From IMG/VR virus record IMGVR_UViG_648028025_000005: a DNA stretch of 64,000 bases; one strand, 5' to 3'. Below the pieces are notes generated by a model that saw only the letters and a program-made list of their open reading frames with translations, made no database searches and was not told where the DNA came from. Source of the DNA: a virus (taxonomy: Duplodnaviria; Heunggongvirae; Uroviricota; Caudoviricetes). Made by a program: the position numbers and the translations under genes. Of the stretch, positions 7,198 to 63,721 are shown piece after piece; positions within the stretch are counted from its first letter, which is position 1; each line of letters opens with the position of its first letter.

Positions 7198-8088
7198 TCA
7201 GGCTGCCAGATCATCGTTTCCGATGGAAGCATAATAAGCTTTTTCTGCTTCTGCCGGAGGAGTATGGCCCAGCCTTCCCAGCAATCGTCGATTGTTATAC
7301 CAGTCCACCCACGTTAGTGTGGCCAGTTCCACTTCTGCACGGTTTTTCCAGCTCTTACGGTGTATTACCTCCGCTTTGTAAAGACCATTGATGCTCTCAG
7401 CCATCGCGTTGTCATACGAGTCGCCTGTACTCCCTGTTGATGCCAGTAATCCGGCTTCTTTTAGTCGCTCCGTATAGGCCAGTGACACATACTGAGAGCC
7501 TTTATCGCTGTGATGGATGGTGCCAGACGGACGACGGGCCCACAACGCCTGCTCCAGCGCATCCAGCACGAATGTCGTTTCCATAGACGATGAGACCCGC
7601 CACCCCACGATGTATCCGGCAAACACATCAATGATAAACGCCACATAGACGAAGCCCTGCCATGTGCTGACGTAAGTAAAATCAGCCACCCACAGCTGGT
7701 CAGGTCGTTCTGCCACGAACTGACGGTTTACGCGGTCGCCTGCGGCAACGGCTTTCCGGCTGATGGTCGTACGGACCTTTTTACCCCGGAGAACACCGGC
7801 AAGTCCCATAACCGCCATGAGACGTGCCACTGTACATCTGGCCACCCTGATTCCTTCCCGTAACAACTGACGCCAGACTTTACGCACACCGTACACCTGA
7901 TGATTTTCATCGTATACGCGCTGTATCTCTCTCTTCAGCCAGTCGTCGTGCTGCGCACGGGCACTGCGTTTATCCGGATGATGTCGCTGTTGCTGACAAT
8001 GGTAATACGTTGACGGGGCAATATGCAGTTCGCTGCATACCGGTCCGACCCCGTACTGCTCACGCAGCTTATCCAGCAGTGGCATCAT
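7198..8088 (-). CDS. IS629 transposase OrfB (DDE catalytic domain)
   Basis: 296 aa, recognised IS3-family OrfB sequence ([16 protein letters not shown]...). Confidence 0.9.
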
Positions 8089-8411
8089 TTTTTCCAGAGG
8101 CGGTCGAACTCCGCCTTCGCAAAATAAGCGGAAGCCTGGCGAAGGATATCGTTACTGCGGCGCAGTTCACGATTTTCACGTTCCAGCTCTTTCAGACGCT
8201 GACGTTCAGCGCTGGTGAGCCCACCATCACCGCCCCCGGTATCCCGCTCATGCTGGCGAACCCAGACACGCAGGGTCTCCGGCGTACAGCCAATCTTTGG
8301 GGCAATGGAACAAATTGCCGCCCACTGTGAGTCATATTCATCCTGACTTTCCAGAACCATACGAATCGCCCGCTGACGGACTTCGGGGGAAAAACGAGTA
8401 TTTTTAGTCAT
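8085..8411 (-). CDS. IS629 transposase OrfA
   Basis: 108 aa HTH protein [19 protein letters not shown]...; overlaps orfB start at A-rich run (GGAAAAAATGATG). Confidence 0.9.
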
Positions 8412-9499
8412 CCTGTTTACCTCTTTCTCAGGGAGTTTAGTCTCCAGGATTTCCGGGGCGGTTCATATACTTTTAGTGTGCTTTGATTCTGATATATCAT
8501 CTTTAATTATCTTGATGATTCTTTCATTCTGCCATAGAAGTGATGGTGCAGATATATAATAATAGTTAAAGCATGAATTATTTTTTAAGCAATCAAGCAC
8601 AAAAATAGCACCTAGCGAGTGCCCCCATATACCGATTCTGGAACTGTTCGGAGCAATAGTACTAACCCATGGCATGATCTGAGTTAGTAATAATTCTCGG
8701 AAAGACTGGCTTCCTCCACCAGTAAAGTAGATCCATGCTGGTTTAGAGTTATCAACAATAGCATTTTCACCATCAGGAGTATAATCGTAAGCACGGCGAT
8801 GAATGCTAAGGTTATTCCAAGATTCATAACCAAGTGTAACTAACACTGGTGGATTGGGTAGTGCATCAATAACAGGCAGAATATCAGAAATGTAATTGTT
8901 GGCACTATTCCCATCAAGTATATAAAGAGTTGCATTATTTTTTTTAATGTTTTTTGGAGTAAAAATACATATTTTATATTTGGTGTCATGGTTAATTGAG
9001 TTAAATATGCGTGTTTGACAATGAATGTCCATATGTTTAGTCATGCGTTCTCCCCATGAGCATTAAAGGATGCTTAAGATATGCTATGTCACTGATAAAA
9101 AATTTGTTGTGTGTGTTTAGTTATTTTATCTACCTCCATTATGATTTAAGACTGATATATGTTATCAGCAAAGGTACATCGTTATTATTTTACCTGTCAA
9201 TACATTTGATATTGATTATCGTTTACATCGCTTGCTTAGGAAATTGAAGGCAGGTAACTATCATGTCAATGAACTAACCCACAGTCTAACGTACTTCTTT
9301 CCCCAATCACCAACAACCAAATTCCTGTTATCACCACTGGGATTTTGGCGCAACTTCATGGTGCAGAGGTAAATAGCATCAAGCAAAATCTCTTTTTCCG
9401 TTGTTGTCCTTATGGGACGTCTGTCTTTCTGACCGATTTCATATTGGCGAGGTAATGGGAAGTTAAGTAGAATAGCTGCGGGTGCTTGAGGCTATCTGC

Positions 9500-9648
9500 C
9501 TCGGGCATGAACACCAACGGCAGATAGAGAAAAGCCCCAGTTAACATTACGCGTCCTGCAAGACGCTTAACATTAATCTGAGGCTCAATCTATGAACGGC
9601 AAATCTAGGTTAGCCTCTTACGTGCCGAAAGGCAAGGAGAAGCAGGCT
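9500..9648. promoter_or_regulatory. hok leader region; expected location of mok start and antisense sok RNA
   Basis: by analogy with hok/sok loci only; in-frame upstream extension of hok ORF begins at 9592; no sok promoter mapped. Confidence 0.3.
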
Positions 9649-9804
9649 ATGAAGCAGCAAAAGGCGATGTTAATCGCCCTGATCGTCATCTGTTTAACCG
9701 TCATAGTGACGGCACTGGTAACGAGGAAAGACCTCTGCGAGGTACGAATCCGAACCGGCCAGACGGAGGTCGCTGTCTTCACAGCTTACGAACCTGAGGA
9801 GTAA
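9649..9804 (+). CDS. hok: Hok/Gef-family type I toxin (HokD/RelF-like, 51 aa)
   Basis: MKQQKAMLIALIVICLTVIVTALVTRKDLCEVRIRTGQTEVAVFTAYEPEE; single transmembrane helix; followed by terminator. Confidence 0.85.
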   Translation: MKQQKAMLIALIVICLTVIVTALVTRKDLCEVRIRTGQTEVAVFTAYEPEE

Positions 9805-13637: not shown

Positions 13638-14351
13638 ATGGTTGTTGTCTGTTCAGTTATCATGGTTTGCTCCCCAATTAATATTTTTCTTGAAAAGGAT
13701 ACGTTGTCACTTAAGCCCGGCTCAGTCGTTCTGGCCACCAAATGCATCAGGGCGCTTTTCCTTATGCATTATGGCAAAGTTAAAATTTTCGATATAAACC
13801 ATTCCATAGTAAGTCAATATCTGGAAATTCAGCATAAGCTGACAAGAACTCATCTGACTGACGTTCCGCTTTATCTGTCACTGGAACCCAACAACCCTGC
13901 GTTGGCTGAGGCTTTAATTACCAGCCAGAGATTTTCCGGAGATACCACGGATATGTTTCTTATGATGGCATGCCTGTCGCTGTTTGAATCAGATGAACGG
14001 ATATTATTATTTTTAAGTGGATGTTTATCCAGTATAAGTGCCAAAGTCAGGGCGATAATTCAGACAGATATATCAGCAAGCTGGACGCTTGGTGCGATTG
14101 CGTTACGCCTGCATATGAGTGAGAGTTTGTTAAAGATAAAACTGAAAAATGAAGGGCACATGTTCAGTCGCTTGTTGCTGGAAGAGCGGATGCGTGTTGC
14201 TGTGAATATGTTATGTTCCCGGCATGGATATGGACAGGCTATAGCAGAAAAATGCGGTTATTCAAGCAGGTCCTACTTTATTTCTGTATTTCACCGCTAT
14301 TATGGCTTCCCGCCAGACAGATATGTATCCAGGCAAGGGCTTGATTATTGA
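13638..14351 (+). CDS. AraC-family transcriptional regulator (prophage-borne, YdeO/GadX-like)
   Basis: 237 aa; C-terminal AraC HTH (AIAEKCGYSSRSYFISVFHRYYGFPP); paralog in B at 61650-62363. Confidence 0.8.
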   Translation: MVVVCSVIMVCSPINIFLEKDTLSLKPGSVVLATKCIRALFLMHYGKVKIFDINHSIVSQYLEIQHKLTRTHLTDVPLYLSLEPNNPALAEALITSQRFSGDTTDMFLMMACLSLFESDERILLFLSGCLSSISAKVRAIIQTDISASWTLGAIALRLHMSESLLKIKLKNEGHMFSRLLLEERMRVAVNMLCSRHGYGQAIAEKCGYSSRSYFISVFHRYYGFPPDRYVSRQGLDY

Positions 14352-14379: not shown

Positions 14380-14455
14380 GGCCCTTTAGCTCAGTGGTGA
14401 GAGCGAGCGACTCATAATCGCCAGGTCGCTGGTTCAAATCCAGCAAGGGCCACCA
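14380..14455 (+). tRNA. tRNA with CAU anticodon (Ile2/Met type, ileZ-like)
   Basis: 76 nt cloverleaf read by eye; acceptor GGCCCTT/AAGGGCC; anticodon loop CT-CAT-AA; T arm GCTGG-TTCAAAT-CCAGC; CCA encoded. Confidence 0.85.
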
Positions 14456-14462
14456 TCACATA

Positions 14463-14539
14463 CCGCCATTAGCTCATCAGGAAAGAGCGCCAGCTTTCGA
14501 AGCTGGTTGCGCGGAGTTCGGGTCCCCGAAGGCGGTCCA
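14463..14539 (+). tRNA. tRNA-Arg(UCG)-like, degenerate copy
   Basis: anticodon loop TT-TCG-AA; relative to canonical B copy (62477-62553) it has an A-A acceptor mismatch, an A-C T-stem mismatch and altered T loop TTCGGGT. Confidence 0.55.
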
Positions 14540-14552
14540 TTATCTGTATCCT

Positions 14553-14629
14553 GCGTTGTTAGCTCAGCCGGACAGAGCAATTGCCTTCTAAGCAATCGGT
14601 CACTGGTTCGAATCCAGTACAACGCGCCA
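14553..14629 (+). tRNA. tRNA-Arg(UCU) (argO-like)
   Basis: 77 nt; acceptor GCGTTGT/ACAACGC; anticodon loop CT-TCT-AA; T arm ACTGG-TTCGAAT-CCAGT; CCA encoded. Confidence 0.85.
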
Positions 14630-14669: not shown

Positions 14670-14734
14670 AAATGTCTCACAATTCAGGCGGTTGACTGTT
14701 GTCTGGTTTGCGGGGAGTTTGTTAAAAGAAACTG

Positions 14735-14842
14735 GCATGGTGAATCCCCCTGTGCGGAGGGGCAATCAGCGAGTAGGTATATGGGATAATCGCGGATTCA
14801 GGTGCTGGTACTGAATTCACCGGGAGGCACCCGGCACCATGC
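14735..14842. promoter_or_regulatory. conserved ~105-bp non-coding element upstream of nanS-p (copy A)
   Basis: ~90% identical copy at 63442-63549; contains hairpin CCCCCTGTGCGGAGGGG; A copy followed by hairpins at ~14868-14920. Confidence 0.35.
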
Positions 14843-15118
14843 AATGGCACATAGCGCCACTCTCCAGCCCCTCTCCGGAGGGGCTTTCTTATGGACAAAA
14901 AAAGCCCGCGCAGGGAGACGCGGGCGGCAAGGAATAAACAACAAAACGTGAAGTAATATTTCAGCTGGCGAATAATATCCGACAGTAATCACTCTGCGCA
15001 ATAGCGCGGCCTTTTTCGTATTGCGGGCTGTTGTCTCTCTTCTGCCATTGTCCTGTAACTTCCGGACTTCAGCCCGCTCCTCATTTTACTCACAATATTA
15101 TCCCGGCCGGGAGGATTC

Positions 15119-16969
15119 ATGGCATTTAAACACTATGATGTTGTCAGGGCGGCGTCGCCGTCAGACCTTGCGGAAAAGCTGACACACAAACTGAAAGAGG
15201 GCTGGCAGCCATACGGCGGACCGGTTGCCATTACGCCGTACACACTGATGCAGGCGGTGGCTATTGAAGGAGATCCACAGGTCGGCCCTTCATCTGAGCC
15301 GGACTGGTTCTACGTGGTTGTGCTTGCCGGACAGTCCAACGGCATGGCCTACGGTGAAGGGCTTCCGTTACCGGATTCTTACGATGCTCCGGATCCGCGC
15401 ATTAAACAGCTGGCGCGCCGCAGCACGGTAACTCCGGGTGGAGAGAGTTGTACGTATAACGACATCATTCCGGCTGACCACTGCCTGCATGATGTGCAGG
15501 ATATGAGTACGCTGAATCATCCGAAGGCAGACCTGAGCAAAGGGCAGTACGGCTGTGTCGGCCAGGGCTTACATATTGCCAAAAAACTGCTTCCGTATAT
15601 CCCGAATAACGCGGGGATCCTGCTGGTACCATGCTGTCGTGGTGGTTCGGCATTTACCCAGGGCGCGGAGGGGACATTCAGTGCGGACACGGGGGCCAGC
15701 CAGGATTCGGCGCGCTGGGGTGTGGGTAAACCGTTATATCAGGACCTGATTGCGCGCACCAAAGCTGCATTACAGAAGAACCCGAAAAATGTGTTGCTGG
15801 CGGTGTGCTGGATGCAGGGAGAGTTTGACATGAGCGCCGCCACCCACGCACAGCAACCTGCGCTGTTTACAGCCATGCTGACACAGTTTCGTGCTGACCT
15901 CTCCGTGTTTAACGCGCAGTGCCATGGTGGCAGTGCTGCAGATGTGCCGTGGATTTGTGGTGACACGACGTATTACTGGAAAAATACATACGCTACCCAG
16001 TACGACACCGTGTACGGCGGGTATAAAAACAGGGAGAGTGAGGGCGTTTATTTTGTGCCCTTCATGACAGACGGTAACGGCGTCAATACCGCCACTAACG
16101 CGCCGGCAGAAGATCCGGATATTCCGGCATCAGGATATTACGGTGCGGCATCGAGAACGAATGGAAACCAGGTATCATCAAACCGCCCGACACATTTCAG
16201 TTCATGGGCGCGCAGGAGCATTATTCCGGATCGTATGGCAACCGCTATTCTGAACGCAGCCGGGCGCACCTCAGCCTTCATCAGTGGTAAGGCACCGGAA
16301 ATCAAACCCTCGCCCGGCGGCAACACGCCATCGGGTCCGTCTGCAGATACGTCCGTTCGCACAATCTCCCTGCTGCCGGCAGCCGGAGAGGCTGCTGCGC
16401 AGGGCTGGAGCATTAAGGATGGCGGAATTCAGTTGTCAGATGGTGTATTTAAGATCACCAAGCAGAGCAATAAAACCTGGTCCCTGACGCATCCGGTGGA
16501 TGACGCAATTACCCTGCTGACACAGGGCGGCAGACTGACCTGTAAGTTCCGCCTGTCAGGCGCACTGACCAACAATCAGTTCGGGCTGGGGATTTATCTG
16601 TATACGGATGCTCCCGTTCCTGATGGTGTGGCGATGACGGGTACCGGTAATCCGTTCCTGATGTCGTACTTCACTCAGACCACTGACGGCAGAGTGAATC
16701 TGATGCATCACAGGAAAGCCGGAAACACGAAGCTGGGGGAGTTCGGCGATTACGGTAACGACTGGCAGACGCTGGAGCTGGTGTTCACCGCCGGCAGTGC
16801 CACGGTTACTCCGAAACTGAATGGAGTGGCTGGCCCGGCATTCCAGGTTATAAAAGACAGTATGACACTGGGACTGAATGCGCTGACGCTGACGGATGTT
16901 ACAAAAAATGCAGCGTATGGCGTTGAGATAGAAAGTCTGGTGCTGGAGATAAATGCACCGGCAGCATAA
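15119..16969 (+). CDS. nanS: prophage 9-O-acetyl sialic acid esterase NanS-p (SGNH/SASA-type)
   Basis: 616 aa; N-terminal MAFKHYDVVRAASPSDLAEKL domain then GQSN nucleophile motif (VVLAGQSNGMAYGEG); sits after the Q-tRNA block as in Stx-type phages. Confidence 0.8.
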   Translation: MAFKHYDVVRAASPSDLAEKLTHKLKEGWQPYGGPVAITPYTLMQAVAIEGDPQVGPSSEPDWFYVVVLAGQSNGMAYGEGLPLPDSYDAPDPRIKQLARRSTVTPGGESCTYNDIIPADHCLHDVQDMSTLNHPKADLSKGQYGCVGQGLHIAKKLLPYIPNNAGILLVPCCRGGSAFTQGAEGTFSADTGASQDSARWGVGKPLYQDLIARTKAALQKNPKNVLLAVCWMQGEFDMSAATHAQQPALFTAMLTQFRADLSVFNAQCHGGSAADVPWICGDTTYYWKNTYATQYDTVYGGYKNRESEGVYFVPFMTDGNGVNTATNAPAEDPDIPASGYYGAASRTNGNQVSSNRPTHFSSWARRSIIPDRMATAILNAAGRTSAFISGKAPEIKPSPGGNTPSGPSADTSVRTISLLPAAGEAAAQGWSIKDGGIQLSDGVFKITKQSNKTWSLTHPVDDAITLLTQGGRLTCKFRLSGALTNNQFGLGIYLYTDAPVPDGVAMTGTGNPFLMSYFTQTTDGRVNLMHHRKAGNTKLGEFGDYGNDWQTLELVFTAGSATVTPKLNGVAGPAFQVIKDSMTLGLNALTLTDVTKNAAYGVEIESLVLEINAPAA

Positions 16970-17416
16970 TAAAAAAAGAGCCAGCGACTGACCTGAAAGA
17001 AGACGCTGGCTAAAAGGCCTTATATGTTTGTAGAGACTTATTTTTCACAGACAGCAATGATGCCTGTCAATATATTATCAATATGCGGATTGTTTCAGTT
17101 ACAGATGCTTTATTAAGGAAAAAAACAGCCAGCACTGACTTTCGGTGGAGAGGTGCTGGCTCAGAAGGATAGTTGGATTTCACATGATACTTATGCCTGG
17201 CGGTATATTTTCTGACAGACAGTGACGGGTGTTGTCAAGATATTGTGTCATTTATAACCTGAATCAGGGGAGGCCGGAATGTTATCTGGCATTTTTAGCA
17301 GAGCCTGAATGCCATAATCACGGCTCCCGGAGTTGGCCGTCAGTGGGTGACACTGGCGGCTTTTTTGTTTTTCTTTACTTTCATTTTCTGTCGGCGGTGA
17401 CGGAGACATACATCAG

Positions 17417-17623
17417 ATGGAAAAAATCACAACAGGTGTGTCATACACCACGTCAGCGGTGGGGACGGGATACTGGTTACTGCAGCTGCTGGACAAAGTC
17501 TCTCCGTCCCAGTGGGTGGCAATAGGTGTGCTGGGAAGTCTGCTGTTTGGCCTGCTGACGTATCTGACTAACCTGTATTTCAAAATCAGAGAGGACCGTC
17601 GTAAGGTGGCGCGGGGAGAGTAG
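17417..17623 (+). CDS. S: class II holin (phage 21 S / pinholin type)
   Basis: 68 aa, two TM helices, C-terminal [13 protein letters not shown]; closely resembles S21 by recall. Confidence 0.8.
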
Positions 17624-62391: not shown

Positions 62392-62467
62392 GGCCCTTTA
62401 GCTCAGTGGTGAGAGCGAGCGACTCATAATCGCCAGGTCGCTGGTTCAAATCCAGCAAGGGCCACCA
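62392..62467 (+). tRNA. tRNA with CAU anticodon (Ile2/Met type)
   Basis: identical in sequence to 14380-14455. Confidence 0.85.
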
Positions 62468-62476
62468 TATCACATA

Positions 62477-62553
62477 CCGCCATTAGCTCATCGGGACAGA
62501 GCGCCAGCCTTCGAAGCTGGCTGCGCGGGGTTCAAGTCCCCGATGGCGGTCCA
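62477..62553 (+). tRNA. tRNA-Arg(UCG), canonical copy
   Basis: acceptor CCGCCAT/ATGGCGG fully paired; anticodon loop CT-TCG-AA; T arm CGGGG-TTCAAGT-CCCCG. Confidence 0.8.
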
Positions 62554-62566
62554 TTATCAGCATCAT

Positions 62567-62643
62567 GCGTTGTTAGCTCAGTCGGACAGAGCAATTGCCT
62601 TCTAAGCAATCGGTCAGTGGTTCGACTCCACTACAACGCGCCA
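62567..62643 (+). tRNA. tRNA-Arg(UCU)
   Basis: anticodon loop CT-TCT-AA; T arm AGTGG-TTCGACT-CCACT. Confidence 0.85.
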
Positions 62644-62812: not shown

Positions 62813-63244
62813 ATGTTTGGAATCTTCAAAAAGAAAACCCGCAGAGCGGCAGCGGAAATTAAAAAGTTTGAGAAACGCGATCTGGCACAGGCGGTGATTA
62901 ACGCTGCATACCTGGTGGCCTATGCAGATGGTGAATGCGAGGCATCCGAGAAAGCGAAGATCGAACAGGTCTTACGTAATCAGCCTGCGTTGTCTGCGTT
63001 TACCTCGGAAATTAATGCGATTAGCGCAACTATTATCGGTCAGCTGGATACCAATTTTAAAATTGGTCGTCGTGCCGCGTTACGCGAGATTGAGGATGTG
63101 AAACACGATACGCGTGAAGCGGAAGATGTGCTGGATGTGGCGGTGGCCATTGCGGAGGCAGACGGCGAAATTGAGCCGGAAGAGCGCAAGGTGCTGGAAG
63201 AGATTGCCGGTGTTCTGGGTCTTCGTCTGGAGAATCACCTGTGA
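62813..63244 (+). CDS. TerB-family protein (tellurite-resistance TerB-like fold)
   Basis: 143 aa from ATG 62813; two TerB-like repeats with acidic loops (AAYLVAYADGECEASEKAKI and VAVAIAEADGEIEPEERKVL). Confidence 0.6.
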   Translation: MFGIFKKKTRRAAAEIKKFEKRDLAQAVINAAYLVAYADGECEASEKAKIEQVLRNQPALSAFTSEINAISATIIGQLDTNFKIGRRAALREIEDVKHDTREAEDVLDVAVAIAEADGEIEPEERKVLEEIAGVLGLRLENHL

Positions 63245-63408
63245 CGGTAAAACTGCGCCTGGCTGTGGCTGCACTCCTGCTGTTTCTGGTGGTGATGGTG
63301 GATTTCACCAGCAGAATCATGTCGGTGCTGGCGGATGGGGTGCTGGTCTGCGGCATTGTGGTATTGCTGTGGCCGGTGATAAAAAGAAACAGCCTGCATA
63401 ATGCTTGA
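63241..63408 (+). CDS. small membrane protein (55 aa), coupled to TerB-like gene
   Basis: GTG 63241 overlapping TerB-like stop (GTGA); two hydrophobic helices; below track cutoff. Confidence 0.3.
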   Translation: MTVKLRLAVAALLLFLVVMVDFTSRIMSVLADGVLVCGIVVLLWPVIKRNSLHNA

Positions 63409-63441
63409 TTTTTTTGTTTGCTGTTTATTAAAAACACTTCT

Positions 63442-63549
63442 GCATGGTGAATCCCCCTGTGCGGAGGGGCGATCAGCAACCAGGTATATGGGATAATCGC
63501 GGATTCAGGTGCTGATACTGAATTCACCGGGAGGCACCCGGCACCATGC
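63442..63549. promoter_or_regulatory. conserved ~105-bp non-coding element upstream of nanS-p (copy B)
   Basis: ~90% identical to 14735-14842. Confidence 0.35.
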
Positions 63550-63721
63550 TTTGCCACAAAAGTGTTGTTTCTGTTTTTCTCAAACTATCATCGTTATCCC
63601 TTTATTTCCGGCTGCGCATGGCGTGGCCTTTTTTTACGACCAGCCACTGGCAGATGGCCATCCTGTAATTTGATTCCGGTTCCGGCTTTTTAACTCTGTT
63701 CCTGTACACGGGAGAAATTCG

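Follow-up and report, generated by a model that had tools for sequence, protein, structure and literature searches.

STnc100 (Rfam RF02076) is a Gammaproteobacterial small RNA (sRNA) that was first listed in Salmonella and whose function is given as '-' in Rfam-based reviews. RpoD ChIP-exo signal has been reported at Salmonella STnc100 promoters (PMC10794520), STnc_100 has been detected by qPCR in STEC vesicles (PMC12370729), and in EDL933 RNA-seq reads were found for 11 of 11 STnc100 copies, one of which (STnc100_4) was northern-positive (PMC5331693). In the O157:H7 strain Sakai, sRNA dyads lie between the late promoter and the lysis genes of at least eight prophages (PMC4104026; reviewed in PMC7873438). 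The dyad of prophage Sp4 includes EcOnc05 on the plus strand, recovered in 5/5 Hfq CRAC data sets and seen as a northern band of ~222 nt (Tree et al. 2014, PMC4104026 Table S2), and the convergent minus-strand Hfq peaks EcOnc08 and EcOnc21 (Sakai 1179938-1180010 and 1180016-1180101; PMC4104026). Another Sakai RNA, EcOnc27, gives a 247-nt band that is destabilised in a delta-hfq strain (PMC4104026). The EPEC RIL-seq sRNAs PasD1 and PasD2, which according to a preprint descend from a common ancestor with STnc100 (10.64898/2026.05.13.724894), are reported to depend on Hfq for stability, as judged by northern blotting (PMC8550237). StxS and lambda 6S RNA, too, are short RNAs that bind Hfq and come from the late region of lambdoid or Stx phages. 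However, they are made from PR' by early termination, 5' of the tRNAs and stx, whereas the element described below has its own promoter, lies 3' of the tRNAs and is unrelated to them in sequence.

Two prophage copies of a catalogued sRNA

The window, that is, the whole 64,000-nt stretch of DNA analysed here (IMG/VR record IMGVR_UViG_648028025_000005), contains the late regions of two lambdoid prophages, A and B. The gene order in A is Q-family antiterminator, CPBP protease, AraC-type regulator, three tRNAs, element, nanS-p and holin. The relevant positions are as follows.

13638-14351: AraC-type regulator, prophage A
14380-14629: tRNA cluster of prophage A (Met/Ile-CAT, Arg-TCG, Arg-TCT), followed by the cluster's terminator and then the element
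14735-14842, plus strand: 5' domain of copy A, inside the Rfam STnc100 match
15119-16969: SASA sialate esterase (nanS-p), prophage A
17417-17623: holin, prophage A
62392-62643: tRNAs of prophage B, the same ones as in A
62813-63244: TerB protein (PF05099), prophage B
63241-63408: DUF3927 protein, prophage B, between the tRNAs and the element
63442-63549, plus strand: 5' domain of copy B, inside the Rfam STnc100 match
63722: start of nanS-p, prophage B

In a pairwise alignment the two 108-nt blocks differ by 5 mismatches (103/108 identical, 95%). The first-pass annotation had reported a block of ~90% conservation at these same positions; both copies are indeed there, but their identity is higher than it estimated. 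A 108-bp repeat of 95% identity is far beyond chance. When both intergenic regions were aligned, the flanks proved poorly alignable except for a short promoter-like stretch and the distal terminator. Since identity collapses on either side of 14735-14842 and 63442-63549, the block is sharply bounded. The different upstream content that had been noticed earlier corresponds to the tRNA cluster and its terminator in A, and to the TerB and DUF3927 genes standing in between in B. The same DNA is present in 2860 of 5426 complete E. coli genomes, at a median of two places per genome.

Scanning the whole window against Rfam at the gathering threshold identified both copies as STnc100, copy A with 138 bits (14706-14896) and copy B with 104.7 bits (63413-63585), the curated gathering score of the family being 47 bits. 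Permissive (E-value-mode) Rfam scans of both regions returned nothing credible besides STnc100, only chance-level matches. The element resembles the family in the full or near-full length of the match, in its helices and in its prophage setting. The closing helix of STnc100 and helices P1, P3 and P4 can all form, with support from substitutions. The Rho-independent terminator hairpin that ends the model is present in copy A (14866-14885 plus a U-rich tail) but not in copy B, where the cmscan alignment has a 24-position deletion in the terminator part of the model. A tRNA-like or tmRNA identity was rejected, as ARAGORN and the Rfam tRNA model find only the three upstream tRNAs. Elsewhere in the window, matches above the gathering score were obtained for the ALIL pseudoknot, an IS3-family frameshift signal (8014-8130, minus strand), for sok antitoxin RNA adjoining hokD (9480-9654, plus strand) and for DicF (48602-48653, minus strand).

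Copy A, together with ~500 bp of surrounding sequence, is base-for-base identical (501/501) to prophage Sp4 of O157:H7 Sakai at an offset of +1165039; its sequence is that of EcOnc05. The source of the window is a different EHEC-type strain, in which a second prophage copy lies ~48.7 kb away. Mapped onto the identical sequence, the EcOnc05 Hfq peak covers 14767-14875 and ends inside the copy A terminator. The published STnc_100 qPCR primers (PMC12370729) match exactly at 14737-14756 and 14810-14829. The element is therefore already catalogued, as Rfam STnc100 with copy A as EcOnc05, and is no new discovery. The guess of the first-pass annotation that the block is a phage sRNA is thus borne out by the Rfam match to both copies, by covarying helices and by homologues beside stx in Stx phages. 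The two checks it had proposed, an Rfam/Infernal scan and a covariation analysis, both came out positive, and the discrete transcript whose absence would have counted against it exists for the identical Sp4 sequence as the EcOnc05 northern band (PMC4104026).

The location of the element, between late promoter or moron and lysis genes, is that of the family (Q, tRNAs, element, SASA esterase, holin), and the same position is occupied in VT2-Sakai, VT1-Sakai and phage F039, where it is annotated as STnc100. The VT2-Sakai homologue (207.7 bits) lies just 3' of stx2B and abuts AsxR on the opposite strand; that of VT1-Sakai (176.7 bits) lies just 3' of stx1B. According to the ORF lists and the annotation of the identical Sakai and PV15-279 regions, there is no stx gene between tRNA cluster and element in A or B. 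The homologue in Sp5 is both EcOnc27, whose published probe is the reverse complement of its 3' part, and sRNA103. EcOnc27/sRNA103 (Sp5/933W) shares family, position and a dyad arrangement with a convergent anti-sRNA, but is only about 72% identical, has a longer P2 insert and its own linker and terminator, and faces a partner of the AsxR class.

RefSeq (PGAP) annotation has no ncRNA feature at the sRNA; what it shows there is a minus-strand 'hypothetical protein' pseudogene, partial or frameshifted, for example at L001 5086-5211 (window about 14725-14850, minus strand) and at L006 1098-1339. This pseudogene is likely a mis-annotation that has spread through many genomes. A further observation concerns the interval between nanS-p and holin of prophage A, where the plus strand contains an exact match (17128-17152) to the antisense northern probe published for EPEC sRNA PasA, which places a PasA-type sRNA gene on the minus strand there; this layout is that of EPEC prophage PP2.

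A closed 5' domain with a covarying pseudoknot

The conserved block coincides exactly with a single closed RNA domain, which is made up of the following parts (copy A coordinates, plus strand).

14735-14742 with 14835-14842: helix P0, the first 8 nt of the domain paired with the last 8
14747-14751 with 14758-14762: helix P1
14765-14770 with 14804-14809: pseudoknot, AUCAGC after P1 paired with GCUGGU in the P3 loop
14771-14793: P2 region, a variable insert
14794-14801 with 14811-14818: helix P3
14820-14824 with 14830-14834: helix P4

The 'strong hairpin' CCCCCTGTGCGGAGGGG singled out by the first-pass annotation is real and corresponds to P1. For covariation analysis, two IMG/VR motif scans supplied 52 (alignment A5) and then 98 (A6) distinct domain variants; a scan of genome contigs with the 17-mer GCATGGTGAATCCYCCT gave mostly chance matches in unrelated phyla among the matches listed, L062 and L109 being usable. 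Paired cells make up 92% in A6 compared to 40-47% for slid-partner controls, and 92-96% over both alignments. Among the 98 variants of A6, compensatory changes were observed in 5/8 pairs of P0 and 6/8 pairs of P3. The pseudoknot is changed on both sides in 6/6 of its pairs, each of which occurs as four to six standard pair types. P1 and P4 are almost invariant, P4 being uninformative in A6 because it was fixed by the search motif, and the unpaired nucleotides AAUC are near-invariant as well. The five differences between copies A and B fall in a junction, the variable P2 region and the pseudoknot, the last of them turning a G.U pair into A-U.

Minimum free energy (MFE) folding of copy A reproduced P0-P4, with z-scores of -2.6 for the full length and -2.0 for the domain alone. 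P0 is also closed in the MFE folds of the copy B, PasD2 and Sp5 domains, although full-length copy B folds less decisively than copy A. Two other pairings were considered and dropped. In the RNAalifold consensus of A5 the partner of the 5' strand was CACCCGGC, not CACCAUGC; this consensus was rejected because relaxing the 5' motif exposed the compensatory changes in P0. A nested P2 helix, GCGA/UCGC, was 86% paired in A5, but since it overlaps the far better supported pseudoknot, we set it aside and treat P2 as a variable insert. The structure line of the STnc100 model in cmscan shows no pseudoknot, and we found no description of the 14765-14770/14804-14809 pairing in the papers searched, including the preprint on STnc100 and PasD (10.64898/2026.05.13.724894). 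What may be new here is limited to the pseudoknot, with its support from covariation, and to the view of the RNA as modular, one domain taking exchangeable tails.

Promoter, tails and a convergent partner

Upstream of each domain a promoter-like site can be read from the sequence.

14699-14727, plus strand: copy A site, TTGTCT (14699-14704), 17-nt spacer, TTAAAA (14722-14727), 7 nt to G14735
63405-63433, plus strand: copy B site, TTGATT (63405-63410), 17-nt spacer, TTAAAA (63428-63433), 8 nt to G63442

This geometry is conserved: almost all of the 47 distinct upstream sequences listed have a TTTGTTAAAA/TTTATTAAAA box 7-8 nt before GCATGG and a TTGnnn hexamer 17 nt farther upstream of the box. 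The copy B promoter region aligns with that upstream of EPEC PasD2 with few substitutions, and the 5' end of PasD2, as estimated from RNA-seq, is the G of GCATGG. A strict sigma-70 consensus scan of both regions picked up no promoter, the copy A site being too weak, so that our call of a sigma-70-like promoter is based on the conservation and on the PasD2 5' end. Starting from the G of GCATGG, the predicted RNAs would be about 157 nt (A) and about 194 nt (B) long. The northern sizes of EcOnc05 (~222 nt) and EcOnc27 (~235/247 nt) exceed the corresponding inferred lengths of about 157 and 177 nt by 60-70 nt; candidate explanations are a 5' end farther upstream, near a TCACAATTCAG box, and cross-hybridisation of the probe with paralogues. 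The conserved TCACAATTCAG box (window 14670-14698), ~58 nt 5' of the inferred start, is found in A-type and Stx-phage copies and is absent from those of the B/PasD type. The box may be the site of a regulator; alternatively, it may belong to a longer transcript, which would account for the larger northern sizes.

Downstream of the domain the two copies continue as follows; terminators were located by a terminator scan.

14843-14865, plus strand: variable linker of copy A, the candidate seed region, which differs among 21 tail classes
14866-14893, plus strand: intrinsic terminator of copy A, AGCCCCTC-TCCG-GAGGGGCT followed by TTCTTAT, also the terminal hairpin of the Rfam model
14994-15009, plus strand: further terminator downstream of copy A
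14897-15062, minus strand: convergent sRNA of EcOnc08/EcOnc21 type, stem 14925-14904, U-tract 14903-14897 (T7)
63550-63635, plus strand: tail and terminator of copy B, stem 63610-63628 plus T7

The U-tract of the copy A terminator is interrupted. Among the IMG/VR matches, the same domain is joined to 21 tail classes, that of copy B being seen 13 times. Some metagenomic viral contigs carry tandem arrays of three to five complete units, each with a promoter-like region, the domain, a different linker and a terminator (L254 373-988, L263 1726-2341, L278 4380-5459; spacing about 253 bp in the regular part). We also noticed that the 3' arm of P1, GGAGGGGC (14758-14763), is nearly duplicated in the 3' arm of the copy A terminator (14866-14885). 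Hypothetically, the 5' arm of the terminator could thus pair with P1 as an antiterminator.

The 'bidirectional terminator-like structure' seen earlier past copy A resolves, in the terminator scan, into convergent plus- and minus-strand intrinsic terminators, and is the tail-to-tail junction of two convergent sRNA genes. By the Sakai offset, EcOnc08 maps to window 14899-14971 and EcOnc21 to 14977-15062. The minus-strand sRNA is homologous to the EPEC RIL-seq sRNA 'E2348C_1409.E2348C_1408.IGR'. Depending on its start site, it would be antisense to the nanS-p 5' UTR. No Rfam match to AsxR/AgvB was found in the window. RNAs of that class are 51-60 nt long with a conserved ~42-nt 3' region ending ...GCCCGAACCCAYTCGGGC, whereas the minus-strand partner of copy A has the terminator GCCCGCGTCTCCCTGCGCGGGC, unlike AsxR/AgvB, and belongs to the EcOnc08/21/42 group.

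The tail of copy B, together with its terminator (GGCTGCGCATGGCGYGGCC, then a T run), aligns with PasD2 and with EcOnc13 of Sakai Sp3. PasD1/PasD2 (EPEC E2348/69) and EcOnc13 share with the element their synteny, upstream of sialate esterase or holin, a homologous promoter, the same 5' end and the domain helices including the pseudoknot. They differ from it in a domain of about 99 nt with a shortened P4 region, and the domains of PasD and copy B differ widely; the PasD loci score below the STnc100 gathering score. Copy B falls short of the BLAST-level similarity and the UGUGAG seed expected of a PasD, carrying UUUAUUUCC where PasD has UUGUGAGUUC. With an STnc100-type domain and a PasD-like tail, copy B is thus best called an intermediate that links both families.

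What the element might do

We consider it very probable that the two copies are STnc100-family sRNA genes, each self-contained, and that their products bind Hfq and most likely base-pair in trans through the 3' linker. Each gene would sit in the lambdoid 'moron' region, between the Q-dependent late promoter with the tRNA cluster and nanS-p with the lysis genes. A weak sigma-70-type promoter would start transcription at the G of GCATGG in lysogens, and the first 108 nt would fold into a closed four-helix domain locked by the pseudoknot, followed by a short variable linker and the intrinsic terminator. The RNA would bind Hfq, and its variable 3' linker would most likely pair with host or prophage mRNAs, while the conserved 5' domain may serve as a common scaffold, for stability or for a putative partner. 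Discrete transcripts, Hfq binding and expression in lysogens are taken from the published work. Placing specificity in the linker follows from the 21 tail classes on one domain and from PasD, whose RIL-seq target chimeras and predicted seed are in the 3' part, equivalent to the copy A linker. By analogy, the seed of the A and B copies is expected in the variable linker; its location, the trans-acting mechanism and the role of the 5' domain are what we infer.

Could the block instead be kept for what it does in cis? In lambdoid phages, Q-modified polymerase reads through the late region on induction. It must therefore cross the element, which is always on the late-gene strand and 5' of nanS-p in both copies, and conservation might then reflect only a late-operon promoter, 5' UTR or processing site of nanS-p. 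We regard this as improbable. The element has a conserved promoter and terminator of its own, and a promoter of its own makes it more than a piece of the late transcript; moreover, plus-strand terminators (one in B, two in A) stand before nanS-p, homologues are found where the nanS-p body is deleted (Sakai Sp3), next to holin (PasD1) and in tandem arrays, and discrete Hfq-bound RNAs are documented (PMC4104026). A coding role, either as the remnant of a minus-strand protein gene, as in RefSeq, or as a small peptide from the AUG at 14737, is barely credible, even though PGAP draws its partial pseudogene over the element, ORFs exist mechanically and ribosome footprints were reported on some EDL933 copies (PMC5331693). 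Domain lengths range from 102 to 138 nt in steps that are not multiples of 3, the substitutions compensate one another in RNA helices, and the AUG is replaced in many variants while helix P0 is kept. The plus-strand ORF stops after 12, 23 and 11 codons in A, B and Sp5, respectively, and that of the minus strand has no Pfam match.

Base pairing by an sRNA does not call for a domain of several helices and a pseudoknot, and the Hfq base-pairing model leaves this domain unexplained. It might be an autonomous RNA module for protein or ligand binding, a processing signal or terminator control, with seed pairing by the tail secondary or absent. The closed junction, the strongly covarying pseudoknot, the near-invariant unpaired AAUC and the P1 and P4 sequences would all fit such a module, as would its retention while tails are swapped, its repetition in tandem arrays and, in A-type copies, the likeness of GGAGGGGC to the terminator 3' arm, which makes an alternative P1-terminator pairing conceivable. 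However, no Rfam riboswitch or ribozyme family was matched, neither copy B nor PasD-type tails can form the P1-terminator pairing, and Hfq binding together with the PasD target chimeras already suffices as an sRNA explanation; we therefore hold such an autonomous module to be rather unlikely. It is tempting to speculate, if only tentatively, that the pseudoknot-locked 108-nt module is a shared 5' 'chassis' for many sRNA tails that also has a function of its own, be it a protein or ligand partner, protection or processing of the late transcript, or control of the adjacent terminator.

Whichever role its domain plays, the element is a member of an sRNA family that roughly every second complete E. 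coli genome contains, often more than once, and that is located beside the Shiga toxin genes in Stx phages. In practical terms, the analysis exposes a likely mis-annotation in RefSeq, ties STnc100 to PasD through copy B and delimits the conserved part as a closed pseudoknotted domain. Should this domain prove to have a specific partner, its retention in prophages that swap the target-pairing tails would be accounted for.
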